A stretch of DNA of 64,000 nt, from positions 498-64,497 of the forward strand of contig CAYMYR010000007.1 of NCBI GenBank assembly GCA_964394715.1, given 5' to 3'. Below, one piece after another: positions 51,534 to 63,910 of this stretch. Below the pieces are notes generated by a model. The model was given only the letters and a program-made list of their open reading frames with translations. It did not search any database and was not told the DNA's origin. The position numbers and the translations under genes are program-made. Origin of the DNA: an uncultured Smithella sp. Lineage in GTDB: Bacteria > Desulfobacterota > Syntrophia > Syntrophales > Smithellaceae. Within the stretch, counting starts at the first letter, position 1; every line of letters begins with the position of its first letter.

Positions 51534-52190
51534 TTATTCATTATCAGTTGTCGACATCCAGAGCTCTTTGCCCTTTGTTGTCAAGAAGGCCTCAAACATC
51601 CCCAGACTCATTTTGATCAGGGCCTCAGTGGCTTCCTCACGTGAGTACTTTTTTTCGACGATATAACTGTGCACAATCTGCATCCCCATCCCCAGAAATG
51701 CGTGGCTCAAAAGTACCGGGGTAACTCCCTCAATGATTCCCTCCTGCAGCCATTTATCCACATCTTCGGCAAAGTCGCCGGCCCAGGCGCTAAACGCCCC
51801 CCATGTTGCTTGATCGAAGGCCTCGTCTACTCCATAGCCGCGACGGAGCATGATGAGAAAGATGTGGGGGTTGGCATCAATATAATCGAAAAGGACCGTG
51901 TAGGTTTCCCGAAGAATTTTAATCCGATCAATCCGATCCCTTACATTAAACGAACTTCGGACTTCGCGGATGTGTGTTCGGACATTCTCCAGGTTTTCCT
52001 TGGTGATCCGCTCAAAGATATCGCGTTTGTCTTTAAAATAATTATAGAAGGTTCCGGCGGAGATGCCGGCTGACCTTGCGATGTCCATGACTTGAGTGTT
52101 ATGATAGCCTTGTTTGCTGAAAATTTCTGATGCAGCTTCTATGATACAGTTCAGTGTCTGCTGCCGTCTCAGTTCCGAAACCTTTGACAC
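51534..52190 (-). CDS. TetR-family transcriptional regulator
   Basis: HTH TQVMDIARSAGISAGTFYNYFKDKRDIF. Divergent from the efflux operon. Confidence 0.85.
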   Translation of the reverse strand: MSKVSELRRQQTLNCIIEAASEIFSKQGYHNTQVMDIARSAGISAGTFYNYFKDKRDIFERITKENLENVRTHIREVRSSFNVRDRIDRIKILRETYTVLFDYIDANPHIFLIMLRRGYGVDEAFDQATWGAFSAWAGDFAEDVDKWLQEGIIEGVTPVLLSHAFLGMGMQIVHSYIVEKKYSREEATEALIKMSLGMFEAFLTTKGKELWMSTTDNE

Positions 52191-56395: not shown

Positions 56396-57511
56396 ATGAG
56401 AAGACTCTGGCACATCTATAGAATAGGATTGAAGGAACTGATCAGTTTCCGCTACGACTATACCCTGATCATCCTGCTCATCTATGCCTTTTCGATTATG
56501 GTGATCGTCCCTGCGAAGGAGGCCGGTGTCCAGGTTCGCAATGCCTCCGTGGGATTTGTTGATGAAGACAACTCCCGGCTATCCGAACGGATCCGGGATG
56601 CTGTCCAGCCTCCGCAATTCAAGACGGCCCAAACCGTATCCCTTGCAGACATCAATCGGGGCATGGACCGGGGAGAGTACACCTTTGTAATCCATATTCC
56701 CCCGGGATTTCAGAACGATGTCCTTTCCGGAAGGCGCCCCGTCGTCCGCATTGACGTTGACGCGACGGCCACAGGCCATGCCAAGCTCGGCACGAACTAT
56801 CTGCGCTATATCATTGCCGAAGAGACAAACCGCTATCTTTACGGAGTGCAGAAATTACCGGGATCGCCGGTCCAGCTTAACATTCGGGTAAAATACAACC
56901 CCAACCGTGAGAGCCATTGGTTCATGGGGATTGTCTTCCTGATGAAGATGATTACATTGCTGTCGGTTCTTCTGCCTGCGGCAGCCCTCATCCGCGAAAG
57001 GGAGCGGGGAACGGTCGAACACCTCCTTGTCATGCCCCTGACTCCCGCCGAGATCATTATTTCCAAGGTCTGGGCCAACAGCCTGGTGATCCTGAGCGGA
57101 GCAATGATCTCCCTCCTTCTGGCTGTCAGGTGGTTCCTTGGTGTTCCCCTCAGCGGTTCCATCCTGCTTTATGCTGTCGGGACAGTTGTTTATCTCTTTG
57201 CGACGACCGGCCTCGGAATCTTCCTCGGGACCATAGCCAAGAGCCAGCCCCAGATGGGTCTGCTCTGCCTCCCCATCGTCACTCCCATCGTAATGCTCTC
57301 CGGCGGGATGACACCTATCGAGGCCATGCCTTTGTGGCTGCAGAAGATTGTATCGTTTACCCCCACCTCCCATTACCTGGAGTTTGCAGCAACGGTTCTG
57401 ATCTGCAAGGCGGGGATTGATATTGTCTGGAAAGAACTGATCGTCATGATGGCCATTGGCACCGTACTCTTCACAGGCGCCATGCTGCGGTTCCGTAAAA
57501 CATTCCGATGA
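56396..57511 (+). CDS. ABC-2 type permease (YhhJ/YbhR-like)
   Basis: 371 aa with one N-terminal TM segment, a periplasmic loop, and 5 C-terminal TM segments. Confidence 0.8.
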   Translation: MRRLWHIYRIGLKELISFRYDYTLIILLIYAFSIMVIVPAKEAGVQVRNASVGFVDEDNSRLSERIRDAVQPPQFKTAQTVSLADINRGMDRGEYTFVIHIPPGFQNDVLSGRRPVVRIDVDATATGHAKLGTNYLRYIIAEETNRYLYGVQKLPGSPVQLNIRVKYNPNRESHWFMGIVFLMKMITLLSVLLPAAALIRERERGTVEHLLVMPLTPAEIIISKVWANSLVILSGAMISLLLAVRWFLGVPLSGSILLYAVGTVVYLFATTGLGIFLGTIAKSQPQMGLLCLPIVTPIVMLSGGMTPIEAMPLWLQKIVSFTPTSHYLEFAATVLICKAGIDIVWKELIVMMAIGTVLFTGAMLRFRKTFR

Positions 57512-57545
57512 GCCGCAACCAACAAACGACTGCGTTAACCGGGGA

Positions 57546-60500
57546 ATGATGACCATGCAGAAAAACGAAAGGAGGGAATCTCCAGCAACCGTGAGACAGA
57601 TTAATTTGATCCATCTGGCTCGCCTGTTCCTTCTGATGGCTTGCCTGATCCTTTTATGGAACACCGGTGCCAAAGTGGCATCAGGAGCCGGGTTCCCGGT
57701 TGATCAATTTGCCGGAAAGATCAAGGTGAATACCATCCAGGTCCTTGCGTCGCCGCGGAAAGAAGATGTCATCCAGGCTGCCCGTATTCTCGAGAGGGTG
57801 ATGGATGGTGTTTATATCAAGAAGGTCGCGGACCAGTATGTTCTGCTCATCGGTTCATTTCCCGATTCCAGAGAAGGAATTCAGGCGGGCCTCTCGGTTC
57901 TCGATGAAGTGAGGCAAGTCTATCCCAGGTCCTTTTTGCGGCCCGTCTGCAAAACACCGCAGTCTGATGCCCAAAATCGCCGCAGGGATTATCGTTGGTC
58001 CGACGGCGAACAATTAAGAAATCGGAAATTCCCGCCGCTCATCCAGGATCCGGATCCGATGTCTGAAGCAGAAAGATACGGCTACGGTTCATCACCCGGC
58101 CGCCGGCCGCCGGGTGATGAACGGAGATCCCTCTATCACCTGCGGGAAAGGAACATTCCATACGGGACCGGACATTCATACCACCCATCCGACGGGGAGT
58201 CCACTGACCGTGATGAAATCCGTTATGGTGATCGGATACCTGGATTTTATGGAAGCAGAAATTCTGTCGATCCTGAAGCCGGGGATGTGCTCAGGGTGGA
58301 TAGCGGGAAATCTCTGCGGGAAACGGATGAACTTCCGGATGGCTACACCGGCAGGGGGACGGAAAAAGAAAAATTCCAACACCTCCACTATATTCAACCG
58401 ATTCCCGTTACTCAAAATGCTGAACCGCAAATTGATCTCGAAGAGTACGGTTACGGATCCGCCGGCCGGCAGTTGGACGAAGGTATGCAATATGCACCCC
58501 ATCCTTCCATGGGAAGAGACGCCAGATATCCGGTCAGGCGATCATACCGGTCGTATGACCAGGGACCGCCCGGTCTTTACGAAAACCGTTCATACAAATC
58601 CGCAACAAGGTCTTATGGAAATAAAAAAGCCGTCGCACCTGAATCAGCGGAGACACGCCCGATCTACGGCCGGCCTTTGTCAAGGAATCCGGAGAATCCC
58701 CCAGAGGATTATTTCCCTGAGGCTGATTTAGGAAAAGAGAAAGAGGGACAGGCAACCATCAGCAATTCGTCTCCGTCCAGTTCTCCTGCGGAGATGTCTG
58801 AAGCAGACCTGATGGTTGCCCGTTCCCTTGAAAAAAGGCGTCCGGAATCAGGTTACGGCAGGGTGGACAACTTCGCTGTAAGGGGGGCCGACGAATATGA
58901 AGAACTGGGCGGTGCCACTGGACTGCGCCAAGAGAGCATGAAGAACCGGGAAAGGGTCTTTAAGGAAACATCCTCCGGCAAGCGGAAGGGTGACGACCGG
59001 TACTCCGTCATCAGGGGAGATGGCGCCGCCGTTAAACCAAAGTTTTCCTCTCCGATTCCGACGCCTTTCTATTCGGCAGCGGCAAGCCGTCGTCCCCACA
59101 GGAATGCTGCCGGATCATTGACCCTCCAGGAAAGCATCAGGATAGCCCTGAAGCAAAGCGTGGTCATTCAATCGGCTAAAGAAGGGGTCGTAGGAGCGCA
59201 GTATGCGAAAAAGGAAGCCTTCACCAATTTTCTCCCCAAGCTGAATACTTCGTACAATTACACCAGGCTCAATGAGCCGCCGGTTTTCCGGACACCGGAA
59301 ACCTCCATCTCTCTGACGACGTATGACAGGCGTCTCAGTATGGCAAATGCCTTTACAATCCCTTCTGTTGATATTCCCATGGGAACCAAGGATAACTATG
59401 CCTGGGCGCTGGAGGTTAAACAGCCTTTGTTTGCCGGTGGCGGGATTCTGTCCAACTACCTGGCAAACCGCACGGGTGAGGAAATCGCCCGAATGGAAGA
59501 GGTGACGGCCATCCAGGATGTGATTCAGGAGGTTATGGTCTCCTACTACAATGTTTTGAAGGCCCAGAGCCTTTACGATGTTGCCGTCAAGTCTCTTGAA
59601 CGCCTGAAGGCTCATCGTGACATGGCCGCAAATCACTTCAAGGTGGGCATGGTTGCTCTGAATGATTATCTCGCCACGGATGTCGAAGTTGCCAATGGGG
59701 AACAGAATCTGGTGAAGGCAGAAAACGCTGTCGAGATGGCCAGTGCCAAATTCAACACGGCTCTGCGCCGTCCCCTGAATACCCCTGTCGAACTCGTGGA
59801 TGCCCTGGAAGTTCGACCTGATAACAGGACCCTGGAGTTTTGTATTAACGAGGCGATGGACCGCCGTCCGGAAATCAAGGCCTATTCTTTGAAGGCCAAG
59901 CAGGCGGGACATCTCGTCGATGCCGCCAAAAGTGAATATTTTCCTACCGTCAGCTTCCTTGGGCACTATGAACTATCGGGAGATACGCCGGGAGTCAATG
60001 GGGCTGAATACTCGGAAACCTTTGCATCGGCCAGCATTCCCGGCAGCAGGGGCAATGTAACGGTCCATGGCAGCCAAACCAAGGATCGTGAGAGCTGGTA
60101 TCTGATGTTTATGCTTAGCTGGAATTTTTGGGAATGGGGAAAAACCCAATACCGTGTCGGTAACGCCCGCAGCCGGGAGATGCAGGTGAATTACGCCTTG
60201 GCCAACATTCGTGATCAGATCTCCCTTGATGTGAAAAATGCCTGGCTAAACCTGCGCCAGGCGGAAAAGCAGATTTCCGTGGCCAGGAAGGCCATCGATG
60301 AGGCGGAGGAAAGCTTCCTGATCAGCCTGGAGCGTTACCGGGAGAGCACAATCACCACGACAACCGTCCTGGATGCCCAAACGCGTCTCACCAAGGCAAA
60401 TTCCGATTACTATAACGCCCTGGGTGATTATCACATCGGCCTGGCGAAATTGGAACGGGCCATGGGTAACCTGTCGCCCGAAAACCGGACAGGTCAATAG
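57546..60500 (+). CDS. TolC-like outer-membrane efflux protein with N-terminal SPOR-like domain and long disordered linker
   Basis: Start probably ATG 57546 (track start 57456 overlaps the permease gene). Hydrophobic signal/anchor segment. SPOR-like block at about 57717-57941 (IQVLASPRKEDVIQAARILERV...YVLLIGSFPDSREGIQAGLSVL). A stretch of about 390 aa rich in R/Y/G/P/E/S follows. From about 59115 it is a canonical OEP/TolC two-repeat domain. Confidence 0.8.
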   Translation: MMTMQKNERRESPATVRQINLIHLARLFLLMACLILLWNTGAKVASGAGFPVDQFAGKIKVNTIQVLASPRKEDVIQAARILERVMDGVYIKKVADQYVLLIGSFPDSREGIQAGLSVLDEVRQVYPRSFLRPVCKTPQSDAQNRRRDYRWSDGEQLRNRKFPPLIQDPDPMSEAERYGYGSSPGRRPPGDERRSLYHLRERNIPYGTGHSYHPSDGESTDRDEIRYGDRIPGFYGSRNSVDPEAGDVLRVDSGKSLRETDELPDGYTGRGTEKEKFQHLHYIQPIPVTQNAEPQIDLEEYGYGSAGRQLDEGMQYAPHPSMGRDARYPVRRSYRSYDQGPPGLYENRSYKSATRSYGNKKAVAPESAETRPIYGRPLSRNPENPPEDYFPEADLGKEKEGQATISNSSPSSSPAEMSEADLMVARSLEKRRPESGYGRVDNFAVRGADEYEELGGATGLRQESMKNRERVFKETSSGKRKGDDRYSVIRGDGAAVKPKFSSPIPTPFYSAAASRRPHRNAAGSLTLQESIRIALKQSVVIQSAKEGVVGAQYAKKEAFTNFLPKLNTSYNYTRLNEPPVFRTPETSISLTTYDRRLSMANAFTIPSVDIPMGTKDNYAWALEVKQPLFAGGGILSNYLANRTGEEIARMEEVTAIQDVIQEVMVSYYNVLKAQSLYDVAVKSLERLKAHRDMAANHFKVGMVALNDYLATDVEVANGEQNLVKAENAVEMASAKFNTALRRPLNTPVELVDALEVRPDNRTLEFCINEAMDRRPEIKAYSLKAKQAGHLVDAAKSEYFPTVSFLGHYELSGDTPGVNGAEYSETFASASIPGSRGNVTVHGSQTKDRESWYLMFMLSWNFWEWGKTQYRVGNARSREMQVNYALANIRDQISLDVKNAWLNLRQAEKQISVARKAIDEAEESFLISLERYRESTITTTTVLDAQTRLTKANSDYYNALGDYHIGLAKLERAMGNLSPENRTGQ

Positions 60501-60571: not shown

Positions 60572-63500
60572 CTAACCATAACAGGTCCTGTTGATAATGA
60601 TCTTTTTCAAATCGTCGGAAAGGTCATTGAAGTATGAGCAGTAGCCGGCTACACGAACCAGCAGATGGGGGTATTTTCCCGGATGGTCATAGGCATCGAG
60701 CAAAATTTGTCTGTTAATGACGTTCGGCTGAAACTGCATACCGCCTTTATCAAAGTAAGCACGGATGATGCCGGAGAGGTTTCTGATTCCGTCCCTGCCC
60801 TGGAACAGCGCCGAGTCAACTGTGAATGTAACCGTGGTGCCGTTGGGGGCATAGTTTGCAAAGTCAACCCCGGCAACAGCATTCAGGGATGACAATAAAT
60901 CCGTTGTCTGCATTCCGTAATGGGGGGTAATGCTGTTGGCAAGAGAAACGCCGCCCAATCTGCCTGAGGGCAGCGCGGGCGTTTTCTTCCCGTAGACATC
61001 ATTGACATTCAAAGCATAATATCCTGCGGTATAGATTCCGCCTCTTGGACAGTTCGCAACCGAGTTCAGTGCGCTGACGTAAATCTGCAAGGTTTTGTTC
61101 ACCCATTCGGTTGCCTGATGCGAACCGTCATGACCAAATTTTGGAACTTCGAGTAATGCCGATCTTACCTTCTGAAAATATTCCCCCTCAAAGTTTTTGT
61201 TGACGGCGTCGATGACGTCATGGATGGAATAAAGCTTCTTCCGGTAGACCACCTCGTCAATGGCAAAGAGTGAATCCGCGACGTCCGTGATTCCTACAGC
61301 CTGAATGCCGCTGCTGTTGATTGTCGCGCCGCCTTCGCACAGGTCCCTTCCGCTCTCGATACAACCCTTGAAAAGGGAGGATGAGAGAGGGGTTGTGAAG
61401 TTTTCACGAATCACTTTCTCAATATTCTGGTGATCGGCCAGGATGGAGCTGGTCAGATGATTCAAACGCACCTGAAAGCGGCGAAGCAGTTCTTCCATGT
61501 TCGCAGGGGGCCTGGGTGTGGCCGTTCTTTTCTTTTTAAAACGGTTTCGGGCATGCATGTATTTTGTAAGGACATATCTGGAAAATGGATTGTCCCTGCG
61601 GCAGTTGTATTCGAAAAACTTCGTGGTCATTTTTTCCAGCTGATCGGTGAAACCGATGTTCCACAGATCTTCTTCTTCCCCTTTGAGGGCCTGCAGAAAA
61701 GGAAGGGCGACGTTCACGTTGGCGCAGTCGGTGTTGCCGAAATGATCATCGGACACATTGGGTTCAACGCATCCGATTACCGCGTAATTTCTCGCATCCT
61801 CCACGGGGGCTGAAGGGTAATGCTTTTTTAACGTTTCCAGGTAAATTTCATCGTTGTATAGGGCAGGCATGGGGGCGCCGTTGATATATACCTCGGCAAG
61901 CCTGTCCAGGTATTGTATGGGGCTGTCCTTGTGAATCCTTGCCGTCATGTTGCAGGCGTAAGGCTGCAATTCGCAGATATCGAGCAGCATGTAGGTAACG
62001 TCATTGGTGGCGTCCCTGCCGTCTCTGCCCAGACCTCCGGCGGTTACAGCCTGATCCGTTGACATTGTCTCAAAGAGTCTTCCTATTCTCAAATAGGTAT
62101 CGCCATCATTGACCAGGATGGCTTCGTCCATTTTGAGAATATACAAGGCCAGCAGTTCTTTTGCCTTGTCATAGTCCAGGATACCGGCCTCTTTGTCCCT
62201 TTTATAGTAAGGATATAATACCTGGTCGAGGCGTCCATGGGAGATTGCGTTTTCGTAGGATTCCGTGCAAATCGCAATCTGCAGAAACAGCATGCTTTGC
62301 AGTGCTTCATGATACGTGCGGGCAGGGTATTTGGGGACATGCCGGCAGATTGCGGCCATTCCTTCCAGCTCTTTGCGGCGTTCAGGATCCGCTTCCCGTA
62401 GATGGAGGCTTGACAGACTCTCGGCATAACGAGCGGCAAACGCCTCCAATCCCTGAAGTGCGAGGATGGCGCCTTCGTAAAAGTCCCGGGCATTGCCGGG
62501 CTTTTCTTTTTGCGCCGATTGAATTTCCCTGATGATCCCTGTGGTGCCAAGTTCAAGCATGCGCTCAAAGTTGACGGTAAAATGCGCAATGGCCGCCGTG
62601 TTGTTATTGAATCCGGCAACATTTTCGGAAGAGCGGGCCATGGTCAACATAAACTTGGGGATGGTATTATTCACCTTCATCAAAAGGCTGTGTTTCAGCC
62701 AGAAAGGAAGCGTTCTGAAAAAAAAGTCTAGTCTTTCCCTCCAGGAACACTTAAACGGAACCGGTTTCTGGCGATGGATCTGATGGAGAATCGAGGCGAA
62801 GAGAACGCCGTAGTGTTCCTCCCATATCTGTCCGCCGCATCGTTTGGCGGTAAAATTGCCGACGAGCAGTTCCCGGGGGTAAATAATAACACTCTTGTTT
62901 TTTAATACATAAGACAGGCGCTCTGCTCTGTGAATGGGGGTCGGTTTCTTAAATCCGTGCTTCCTGTAGTAATCTGTTTTCAGCCTGGAGACCTCAAAGC
63001 ACAGACTCCGGCCGCTTTCCCGGATAGCGTTTTGTATGTCATAAACGCGTCTGGAAAAGGCGGCTTTATGCCCGGGAGTATCCAGATCATAGCATTCGGC
63101 TTTGATGCCAAACGATTGGAACAGTAAGACAGCTTTCTTTACAGCGGCAAGGCTCTGCGCATCTGTGATATTCAACGGTTTAGACGTTAATCCAAGACGT
63201 CGGGCTTTCTCTTCATACATGCAGTGGTATTTCAGCAGCTCGATGGTGTCATGACGGACAGACTTCAGGAAATCAGCAGCCGCAGCCACACGGCTTTCAT
63301 CGTCATTGTAACCCGGCACTATCAGCATGCGGAATTTTATCCCGGCGTTCAGGGCAATCAGTTTACCGATGTTATCCAGGATGATTCTGCTGTCCTGCCC
63401 CGTGTATTTCTTATGGAGAGTTTCATCGCCGACAACTTTCAAATCAACAAGGAACAGATCGATGCAGGGTGCCAACTTCTCGATATTTTCCCATGGTACG

Positions 63501-63910
63501 TGAAGGGAAGTTTCAACGGCCACATGGATACCATCTCTTCTTAAGGGTTCCAGCAAAGATATCAGGGTGTCCGGGTCCTGTAATAGAGGATCGCCACCGC
63601 TCAGGGTTACCCCGCCGTTGGTCTGGCGGTAATAATCTTTGTCTCTGGAAACAAGTTCGATGATGTCGGGAATCGAATAATTTTCGTCAGGCACCGGGTC
63701 CGGATGGAAGGACAGCGCTTCCGGATTCTGGCACCACAGGCATCTCAATCTGCATCCCCGGAAAAAAATCGTTGTGCGGATGCCGGGGCCGTCATGAACG
63801 CAGGTACGCTGTATCTTCAGGACGTTCATCCCATCCGTGTGCAAGTTTTGGCGCTTATAAGATGAATCGTCCTGTAGTCTCAAAAGCTGATGGTTCTGAG
63901 CGGTTTCCAT
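60572..63910 (-). CDS. Fusion protein: radical-SAM GRE-activase domain (N-terminal) + PFL2-type glycyl radical enzyme (C-terminal)
   Basis: Uninterrupted 1112-codon ORF. The first ~280 aa carry VHDGPGIRTT, CRLRCLWC (CX3CX2C) and GGVTLSGGDP. The remainder parallels the GRE at 2183..4585 (IIYPRELLVGNF, Cys loop IGCVEP, C-terminal LVRVAGYCSYFNDL). An alternative start is ATG 63829. Neither start has a strong SD. Confidence 0.85.
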   Translation of the reverse strand: METAQNHQLLRLQDDSSYKRQNLHTDGMNVLKIQRTCVHDGPGIRTTIFFRGCRLRCLWCQNPEALSFHPDPVPDENYSIPDIIELVSRDKDYYRQTNGGVTLSGGDPLLQDPDTLISLLEPLRRDGIHVAVETSLHVPWENIEKLAPCIDLFLVDLKVVGDETLHKKYTGQDSRIILDNIGKLIALNAGIKFRMLIVPGYNDDESRVAAAADFLKSVRHDTIELLKYHCMYEEKARRLGLTSKPLNITDAQSLAAVKKAVLLFQSFGIKAECYDLDTPGHKAAFSRRVYDIQNAIRESGRSLCFEVSRLKTDYYRKHGFKKPTPIHRAERLSYVLKNKSVIIYPRELLVGNFTAKRCGGQIWEEHYGVLFASILHQIHRQKPVPFKCSWRERLDFFFRTLPFWLKHSLLMKVNNTIPKFMLTMARSSENVAGFNNNTAAIAHFTVNFERMLELGTTGIIREIQSAQKEKPGNARDFYEGAILALQGLEAFAARYAESLSSLHLREADPERRKELEGMAAICRHVPKYPARTYHEALQSMLFLQIAICTESYENAISHGRLDQVLYPYYKRDKEAGILDYDKAKELLALYILKMDEAILVNDGDTYLRIGRLFETMSTDQAVTAGGLGRDGRDATNDVTYMLLDICELQPYACNMTARIHKDSPIQYLDRLAEVYINGAPMPALYNDEIYLETLKKHYPSAPVEDARNYAVIGCVEPNVSDDHFGNTDCANVNVALPFLQALKGEEEDLWNIGFTDQLEKMTTKFFEYNCRRDNPFSRYVLTKYMHARNRFKKKRTATPRPPANMEELLRRFQVRLNHLTSSILADHQNIEKVIRENFTTPLSSSLFKGCIESGRDLCEGGATINSSGIQAVGITDVADSLFAIDEVVYRKKLYSIHDVIDAVNKNFEGEYFQKVRSALLEVPKFGHDGSHQATEWVNKTLQIYVSALNSVANCPRGGIYTAGYYALNVNDVYGKKTPALPSGRLGGVSLANSITPHYGMQTTDLLSSLNAVAGVDFANYAPNGTTVTFTVDSALFQGRDGIRNLSGIIRAYFDKGGMQFQPNVINRQILLDAYDHPGKYPHLLVRVAGYCSYFNDLSDDLKKIIINRTCYG

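Follow-up and report, generated by a model that had tools for sequence, protein, structure and literature searches.

A TolC-family outer-membrane factor with a diverged SPOR domain on a long disordered N-terminal arm, encoded in an ABC-2 efflux operon of an uncultured Smithella sp.

The gene considered here is the last of an efflux operon in a 64,000-nucleotide stretch (hereafter the window) of contig CAYMYR010000007.1, from the uncultured Smithella sp. assembly GCA_964394715.1. Its 984-amino-acid (aa) product, P0001, to which an entry in a public protein collection (P0002) is 100% identical, is built of four parts: a predicted signal peptide, a SPOR-like domain of ~80 aa, a linker of 387 aa and a TolC body. 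We propose, with moderate confidence, that this protein is the outer-membrane duct of a TetR-controlled tripartite ABC-2 exporter, in which the SPOR arm ties the channel to the cell wall. The component families are known. Their SPOR-TolC combination is undescribed in the literature, though present in public protein collections, and a full-text literature search found no paper on SPOR-TolC or wall-binding outer-membrane factor (OMF) fusions.

Identity of the channel body and of the N-terminal domain

The C-terminal part of the protein is readily recognised as a TolC-type channel. Pfam OEP (PF02321) scored 199.7 bits (cut-off 22) in two stretches spanning residues ~524-974, and the AlphaFold model based on a multiple-sequence alignment (MSA) of 27 sequences showed the expected strands and long helices, with a predicted local distance difference test (pLDDT) of 85-95 over residues 523-978. 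When the whole model was submitted to Foldseek, E. coli TolC (1ek9) was matched with a template modelling (TM) score of 0.83 and a root-mean-square deviation (rmsd) of 3.8 Å over 465 columns, followed by OprM, OprN, CusC, CmeC, MtrE and VceC; in all, 44 OMF chains were found at E<=1e-3. The TolC-family identity claimed by the original prediction is borne out by the OEP score and by the match to 1ek9, and the start that it gave for the OEP domain, at about nucleotide (nt) 59115, is exact, residue 524 counted from the ATG being residue 554 of the TTG-started frame. NCBIfam TIGR01844 (type_I_sec_TolC) aligned to residues 524-981 and did not reach its cut-off (134.3 vs 225 bits), nor did TIGR01845 (NodT lipoprotein; 48.1 vs 210 bits). 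Since both cut-offs were unmet, the channel body is best placed only at the level of the OEP superfamily. The ratio of non-synonymous to synonymous substitution rates (dN/dS), calculated here and below by the Nei-Gojobori method for the window gene against three homologues, was 0.16-0.18 for the TolC part.

The N-terminal domain (N-domain) was assigned by a less direct route. A search with the TolC part that was confined to long proteins yielded P0009 (754 aa) and P0010 (750 aa), with TolC parts 75% and 54% identical to that of the window, respectively. P0010 has two N-terminal SPOR domains, whose joint Pfam SPOR score is 70 bits (cut-off 21), and in BLASTP the N-domain of the window protein matched these two domains at 38% and 35% identity over 80 residues (E 5e-15 and 3e-14). 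The N-domain of P0009 is 54% identical to that of the window. When a profile of eight N-domains was aligned by hhalign with 33 canonical SPOR domains drawn from the window genome and its relatives, the probability was 95% (E 3.5e-8), with 71 columns aligned in full register; a profile of the five close homologues alone reached 48%, and it was the addition of P0009 and P0010 that raised it. Furthermore, when 40 related genomes were scanned with the N-domain, the sole match beyond its own genome was to a domain of a TPR protein in genome G034 (E 1e-4) that scores 43.7 bits on Pfam SPOR. The secondary structure follows the order beta-alpha-beta-beta-alpha-beta of the RNP-type SPOR fold of ~70 aa (E61-69, H72-85, E89-94, E97-106, H109-125 and a last strand), the AlphaFold pLDDT was 75-85, and with the MSA-based model the first non-OMF matches in Foldseek were the SPOR domains of DamX (2lfv) and CwlC (1x60), the latter with a TM score of 0.68 and an rmsd of 2.4 Å over 69 columns. 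Since the BLASTP matches to P0010, the G034 match, the hhalign result, the fold and the Foldseek matches agree, we consider the N-domain to be a diverged SPOR domain, its homology established indirectly.

In characterised SPOR domains only the side chain of the beta1 Gln (Q270 in RlpA, Q251 in FtsN), which touches MurNAc/GlcNAc, is highly conserved among the ligand-binding elements, most of the contacts come from the backbone, and the basic patch is conserved in structure but not in sequence (Alcorlo 2019, PMC6895207). In the present family Q65 is invariant in 8/8 N-domains and aligns with the conserved Gln of the canonical SPOR domains, and the Y-x-L-x-I/V-G motif of beta3 is likewise invariant. 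The dN/dS of the domain was 0.21-0.33.

A number of observations weigh against a SPOR domain that binds the wall. Pfam SPOR (PF05036, cut-off 21 bits) gave no match at E<=1 on either the whole protein or residues 1-151, and a SPOR hidden Markov model (HMM) of our own reached only 4-7 bits on the N-domain. Foldseek matched the SPOR structures with weak E-values (0.3-0.5), a consequence of submitting the entire 984-aa model, and with the single-sequence AlphaFold model Foldseek preferred generic ferredoxin-like folds (PII/SbtB, ACT) over SPOR, matches that do not discriminate. In a hand alignment the position of FtsN R285 is occupied by Val in the window domain, and a basic patch would need K58, K60, K92, K93 and R132 as candidate residues. 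Since the domain has drifted below HMM detection, its glycan binding could be lost or altered. A general need for tethering is also not evident, since the window genome already encodes five OmpA-type wall binders.

Scans of the whole protein and of residues 1-151 against NCBIfam found no SPOR match either, and the window locus was missing from the five hits of a six-frame SPOR scan of the genome, which found three canonical SPOR proteins elsewhere. The original prediction had read the pattern of a SPOR domain in this block and looked to a Pfam SPOR scan to show it. The scan was negative, which taken literally tells against the claim; the assignment is upheld as to homology, by way of P0010, hhalign, DamX and CwlC. 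A profile search of Protein Data Bank (PDB) sequences with the N-domain returned weak chance matches only, among them RuBisCO small chains. With phmmer against the PDB, matches to a RecA polyprotein proved to be six 5-bit repeats summed and the other match was a RuBisCO chain, and these were rejected as artefacts.

Linker, reading frame and export segment

Between the two domains lies a linker that is rich in R (11.6%), S (10.1%), G (9.8%), P (9.3%), E (8.8%), D (7.0%) and Y (6.5%), with 64% disorder-promoting residues, a mean Kyte-Doolittle hydropathy of -1.27 and a net charge of 0 (61 acidic vs 61 basic residues). AlphaFold assigned it a pLDDT of ~30 without secondary structure. The motifs ERYGYGS (176), EEYGYGS (299), RRSYRSY (331), NRSYKSATRSYG (347) and ESGYGRV (434) recur along it, so that the original description of a disordered Tyr/Arg/Gly/Pro-rich linker of ~390 aa with such motifs holds, its length being 387 aa. 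A periplasmic disordered region of this length that is Tyr/Arg/Gly-rich and net-neutral is unusual in itself, and short linear motifs that partners recognise may lie within it.

In an alignment with five close homologues (72-89% identity, 801-984 aa), this region has indels of 1 to ~180 aa, all of them in frame, and the flanking domains align gap-free. Some of the homologues lack residues 182-332 and 443-486. Invariant columns cluster in a core of 100 aa with the pattern SYRSY...ENR.Y.SA..SYGN..AV...RPIY.R.LSRN...YFP...LGKEK.GQA.ISN.SP.SSPAEMS, for which AlphaFold predicts no structure. Since the dN/dS of the linker was 0.47-0.60, it is translated and under relaxed purifying selection. There is also a weak internal similarity within residues 140-440 at an offset of ~123 aa (score 75 vs 39 +/- 8 for shuffles, maximum 71); ERYGYGS (176) and EEYGYGS (299) fall at this offset, and the deletion in homologue P0005 is of 122 aa. 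The linker may thus contain an old internal duplication or repeat unit. Tandem DNA repeats were considered as its source and rejected, as only two trivial micro-repeats were present.

A long open reading frame (ORF) of this kind might be artefactual, either through genes joined by an assembly or frameshift error or through an internal TolC start that leaves the linker non-coding. The original prediction had named an assembly error in the linker and an internal start as ways in which it could fail. An overlapping ORF in an alternative frame of the linker (58114-58731, + strand, 205 aa) and in-frame ATG/GTG codons at residues 423, 440 and 465 would fit such an explanation. The in-frame starts at 423, 440, 465, 525 and 539, however, are without a Shine-Dalgarno sequence and are followed by no signal peptide. 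Because there is no second signal peptide, a TolC-only product could not be exported and would be unable to reach the outer membrane, and we therefore rejected the internal start. As for an assembly error, one long frame is found in homologues drawn from several separate assemblies (ENA, Logan, JGI), with the operon, or the portion of it that fits on the contig, preceding the gene at five loci (L037, L038, L052, L053 and L055) and the same ORF pattern in L056. All indels are multiples of three, and dN/dS is below 1 in every segment of the protein, including the linker, where a value of ~1 would otherwise be expected. Since homologues occur in separate assemblies, the indels are in frame and dN/dS is below 1, we take the fusion to be a real single protein and regard an artefact as extremely unlikely.

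The frame is open from 57456 to 60500 on the + strand and encodes 984 aa when read from ATG 57546. The sole Shine-Dalgarno-like sequence, GGGGA, abuts this ATG and lies 9 nt before ATG 57555 (M4). Since this spacing fits M4 better, the true start is possibly ATG 57555; homologue P0005 begins at the equivalent position. The signal or anchor segment that the original prediction put first is indeed present as the only hydrophobic segment of the protein (Kyte-Doolittle >1.6 in 19-residue windows beginning at residues 18-27). The signal peptide is probably cleaved near residue 46-48, and relatives have equivalent A-x-A-type sites (NTAAGA in P0009, VMA|E in P0010). C33, which is invariant among the homologues, was considered as a lipobox cysteine and rejected, as it sits mid-helix inside the hydrophobic core, is followed by LILLW and has an atypical lipobox context.

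Operon, relatives and origin of the fusion

The SPOR-TolC gene closes an operon in which a divergent TetR-family gene is followed by an HlyD adaptor, a double nucleotide-binding domain (2xNBD) protein fused to an ABC-2 permease, and a second ABC-2 permease (Table 1). By domains and gene order this can be likened to the YhiI-RbbA-YhhJ / YbhGFSR type, and the same order was found at five homologous loci. The RbbA-like gene probably starts at ATG 53637, with a 4-nt overlap (ATGA) with the HlyD stop; it is called at 918 aa in all homologous loci, and the TTG frame of the window would give 924 aa. The convergent neighbour on the other side (60572-63910, - strand) encodes an 1112-aa activase/glycyl-radical-enzyme fusion; its adjacency to the SPOR-TolC gene recurs at L037, L038 and L052 and is absent at L055.

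Table 1. Features of the SPOR-TolC gene and of its operon, in window coordinates
Feature	Position	Strand	Basis or remark
SPOR-linker-TolC outer-membrane factor gene	57546..60500	+	ORF list, translation; 984 aa (P0001)
Signal peptide (predicted), res 1-48	57546..57689	+	basic n-region, h-region LARLFLLMACLILLW, candidate small-residue signal peptidase I (SPase I) sites AKVASGAG
Diverged SPOR domain, res 58-136, invariant Q65 in beta1	57717..57953	+	BLASTP, hhalign, Foldseek; no direct Pfam match
Disordered linker, res 137-523 (387 aa)	57954..59114	+	composition, hydropathy, pLDDT ~30
Conserved linker core, res ~333-432	58542..58841	+	invariant columns cluster; retained in 5/5 close homologues
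TolC-type channel body, res 524-984, two OEP repeats	59115..60497	+	Pfam OEP 5e-59
Divergent TetR-family regulator	51534..52190	-	Pfam TetR_N 1.6e-17; conserved at homologous loci
HlyD-type periplasmic adaptor (YhiI/YbhG-like), 327 aa	52657..53640	+	Pfam HlyD_3, HlyD_D23
Fused double ATPase + ABC-2 permease (RbbA-like), 918 aa	53637..56393	+	Pfam ABC_tran x2, ABC2_membrane_3
ABC-2 permease (YhhJ-like), directly upstream	56396..57511	+	Pfam ABC2_membrane_3 6.8e-43; position kept at homologous loci

In a maximum-likelihood tree of TolC parts, which took in plain OMFs of 441-501 aa from genomes of the same genus and order, the SPOR-bearing OMFs formed one clade with a support of 100/98. Since they are monophyletic, the SPOR-TolC fusion arose once. 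Within the clade P0010 branches first, then P0009 and then the group of 801-984 aa to which the window protein belongs. After the fusion the SPOR domain of the window lineage drifted below HMM detection. The linker lengthened stepwise, taking the protein from ~750 to ~980 aa in all. The partner pumps differ, as the P0010 gene stands at the head of a MacA/MacB-type operon, and P0009 and the window group sit behind an ABC-2 pump.

The fusion and its N-domain are rare. The N-domain was found in 0/24 congeneric genomes, whose closest OMFs share ~50% identity and have the usual length, and a scan of the GTDB species genomes for it found none. JGI metagenomes gave three matches. An exhaustive phmmer search of 1.84 billion representative proteins with the N-domain recovered nothing beyond its own family (P0006) and a junk repeat protein (P0008). 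A SPOR-OEP fusion, for which the original prediction had suggested a database search, does exist in public protein collections as P0010, which carries precomputed annotations for both SPOR and OEP.

P0010, encoded at locus L054, and its counterpart at L058 are metagenomic proteins of similar design to the window protein, as they belong to the same OMF clade, likewise run from a signal peptide through SPOR and linker to TolC, and have SPOR domains with 35-38% identity to that of the window. They differ in that their SPOR domains pass Pfam (70 bits) whereas that of the window does not, in that their linkers are short and by inspection Ala/Pro/Ser/Thr-rich, and in the partner pump, which is of MacB type rather than the ABC-2 type of the window. 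P0010 (L054:1709-3961) has two SPOR-plus-linker units and L058 (821-1636) has one, a tandem duplication or deletion of a whole unit between close relatives. Directly upstream of the SPOR-TolC gene, both loci (L054:931-1533 and L058:47-649) encode a 200-aa secreted NlpC/P60-like Peptidase_C92 protein, possibly a stem-peptide hydrolase beside a duct with a domain for glycans devoid of peptides.

Other additions to TolC-family proteins were seen in passing. OMFs of the neighbouring clades (P0013-P0024, P0025 and P0026) carry a C-terminal Cds6_C NTF2-like domain that follows a lengthy low-complexity tail, an N-terminal 'YHLPGMPYY...' module (precomputed family PF27542; P0018 and P0025) or an N-terminal AMIN domain (P0026), so accessory periplasmic domains on TolC-family ducts seem to be common in these anaerobe metagenomes. 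In relatives, signal peptide, SPOR, linker and TPR are combined in the proteins of L018 (1-1815, - strand) and L007 (1351-3237), and the L018 protein also has a 'NSDTKRYHLPGMPYY' module that P0018, a TolC protein, carries at its N-terminus. This suggests that TPR envelope proteins and OMFs have exchanged modules. The SPOR domain of the TPR protein of G034 is the closest genomic relative of the window N-domain. A further JGI protein, P0007 (1471 aa), is annotated as AcrB-type (PF00873) and OEP in one chain, and is either an RND pump-TolC fusion or a join made in gene calling or assembly.

Proposed function and comparison with known systems

We envisage that the precursor would be exported via Sec by its sole hydrophobic segment and that, after cleavage, the C-terminal 461 residues would form an ordinary TolC-type channel by folding and trimerisation. 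Each protomer would send its N-terminus out of this channel at the equatorial belt, roughly level with the peptidoglycan, and from there a disordered tether of ~390 residues would carry the small diverged SPOR domain. By random-coil scaling we estimate a radius of gyration of ~7 nm for this tether, whose ends would lie ~15-20 nm apart; these dimensions would set its search radius. Characterised SPOR domains recognise glycan strands that amidases have stripped of their stem peptides. Such a strand would be the likely ligand of the three SPOR domains of each channel. Since the genome, besides its three canonical SPOR proteins, encodes two Amidase_3 enzymes, the usual SPOR ligand should exist in this organism. 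The duct would then be fixed to the wall in general or kept where amidases have acted on it, for instance at septa and new poles. We infer the binding of peptidoglycan, its ligand specificity and any physiological benefit from the parts of the protein and their context.

According to a review of tripartite pumps, the N-terminus of OprM lies in the equatorial domain, midway along the periplasmic barrel, and OMFs touch the peptidoglycan layer with their periplasmic part (PMC8277102). We assume by analogy that the equatorial N-terminus can be extended from OprM to other OMFs. In our model the chain enters the TolC body via a short strand and helix (524-537) and then the first long helix, which is consistent with such an exit position. 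This means that the original prediction has to be corrected on one point, since it attached the arm to the periplasmic end of the channel, whereas the arm leaves the body from the N-terminus, which in OprM is equatorial (PMC8277102) and not at the periplasmic tip. It had also suggested that the arm could gate the efflux complex, for which nothing in our analysis speaks.

The periplasmic barrel of the TolC family is 7 nm wide and must pass through the peptidoglycan mesh. As a tentative extension of the proposal, the SPOR arm might be a targeting device, by which the duct and with it the whole ABC-2 exporter would be held where amidases have stripped the wall (septa, new poles, holes in the sacculus), so that export is spatially restricted. 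Repeated and independent fusions of this sort, with SPOR here and AMIN in P0026, might then reflect a general, so far unrecognised need to position such channels with respect to that mesh.

Two other explanations of the arm have to be weighed against a tether to the wall. In one, the N-terminal segment is not cleaved and serves as an inner-membrane anchor, so that one polypeptide would sit in both membranes with the duct pre-positioned over the pump. FtsN, DamX and DedD do have an N-terminal inner-membrane transmembrane helix with a disordered linker (PMC6895207), AlphaFold predicts a long helix over residues 13-45 of the window protein, the invariant C33 lies within the segment, and the contour length of the linker, ~140 nm by our estimate, is far beyond what is needed for crossing the periplasm. 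The hydrophobic core, however, is only ~15 residues (L24-W38), the length of a signal peptide, and is followed by the conserved small-residue motifs of SPase I type described above (AKVASGAG in the window protein). Assembly of an outer-membrane barrel from a chain tethered in the inner membrane is, moreover, without known precedent. We therefore find an uncleaved anchor improbable.

It is somewhat less doubtful, but still rather unlikely in our judgement, that the appendage is a relic, in which case the SPOR domain would have lost glycan binding, the arm would be an inert spacer, an entropic bristle or functionless, and the protein would be an ordinary TolC. A domain below every SPOR HMM threshold, a length that varies within the clade from 754 to 984 aa, the relaxed selection on the linker and the plain OMFs of 445-500 aa in most congeneric genomes are what a relic would lead one to expect. 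Yet the SPOR domain is under purifying selection near that of the TolC part (dN/dS 0.21-0.33 vs 0.16-0.18) and has been kept through the whole clade since the single fusion. The ligand-contacting Gln and the beta3 motif have remained invariant, and the 100-aa core of the linker is conserved, all of which is more easily reconciled with an arm that still ties the channel to the wall.

TolC-family ducts are usually described as free-standing trimers, and to our knowledge what has been learned of how they relate to peptidoglycan comes only from tomography and modelling work on E. coli pumps. The present duct bears a covalently linked SPOR module that is under purifying selection across a clade, which suggests that contact with the wall, or with wall processed by amidases, can matter for the position or stability of the channel. 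The ~80-aa domain is also a compact test object, for which P0010 supplies a canonical SPOR counterpart.

Compared with E. coli TolC (1EK9) and other TolC-type factors that are not lipoproteins, the modelled window protein has the same two OEP repeats and the same topology of 12-strand barrel and alpha-barrel, and its channel too is encoded beside an adaptor and an inner-membrane ABC transporter. The channel body, however, is only ~18% identical to E. coli TolC, which is also without the 475-residue N-terminal arm of SPOR domain and linker. With FtsN, DamX, DedD and RlpA the window protein shares a small SPOR domain of RNP fold that a long low-complexity tether connects to a membrane anchor, as well as the conserved beta1 Gln, and with RlpA, a lipoprotein, also the location of that anchor in the outer membrane. 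Known SPOR linkers are more often Pro/Gln/Ala/Lys-rich, whereas that of the window protein is Tyr/Arg/Gly-rich, and the SPOR domain of the window protein is too diverged for Pfam. Most SPOR proteins are composed of a membrane anchor, a disordered linker and a SPOR domain (PMC6895207). In the window protein this order is reversed, with the SPOR domain N-terminal and the anchor C-terminal, and the anchor is predicted to be a trimeric export channel rather than a transmembrane helix or a lipid. A parallel of another kind is offered by OmpA, Pal and proteins of the OmpM/SLH type. While their binding domains are unrelated (OmpA_C-like, SLH), their barrels differ and no export duct is among them, they are outer-membrane anchors that carry their own periplasmic peptidoglycan-binding module, and it is this logic that the window protein appears to follow.

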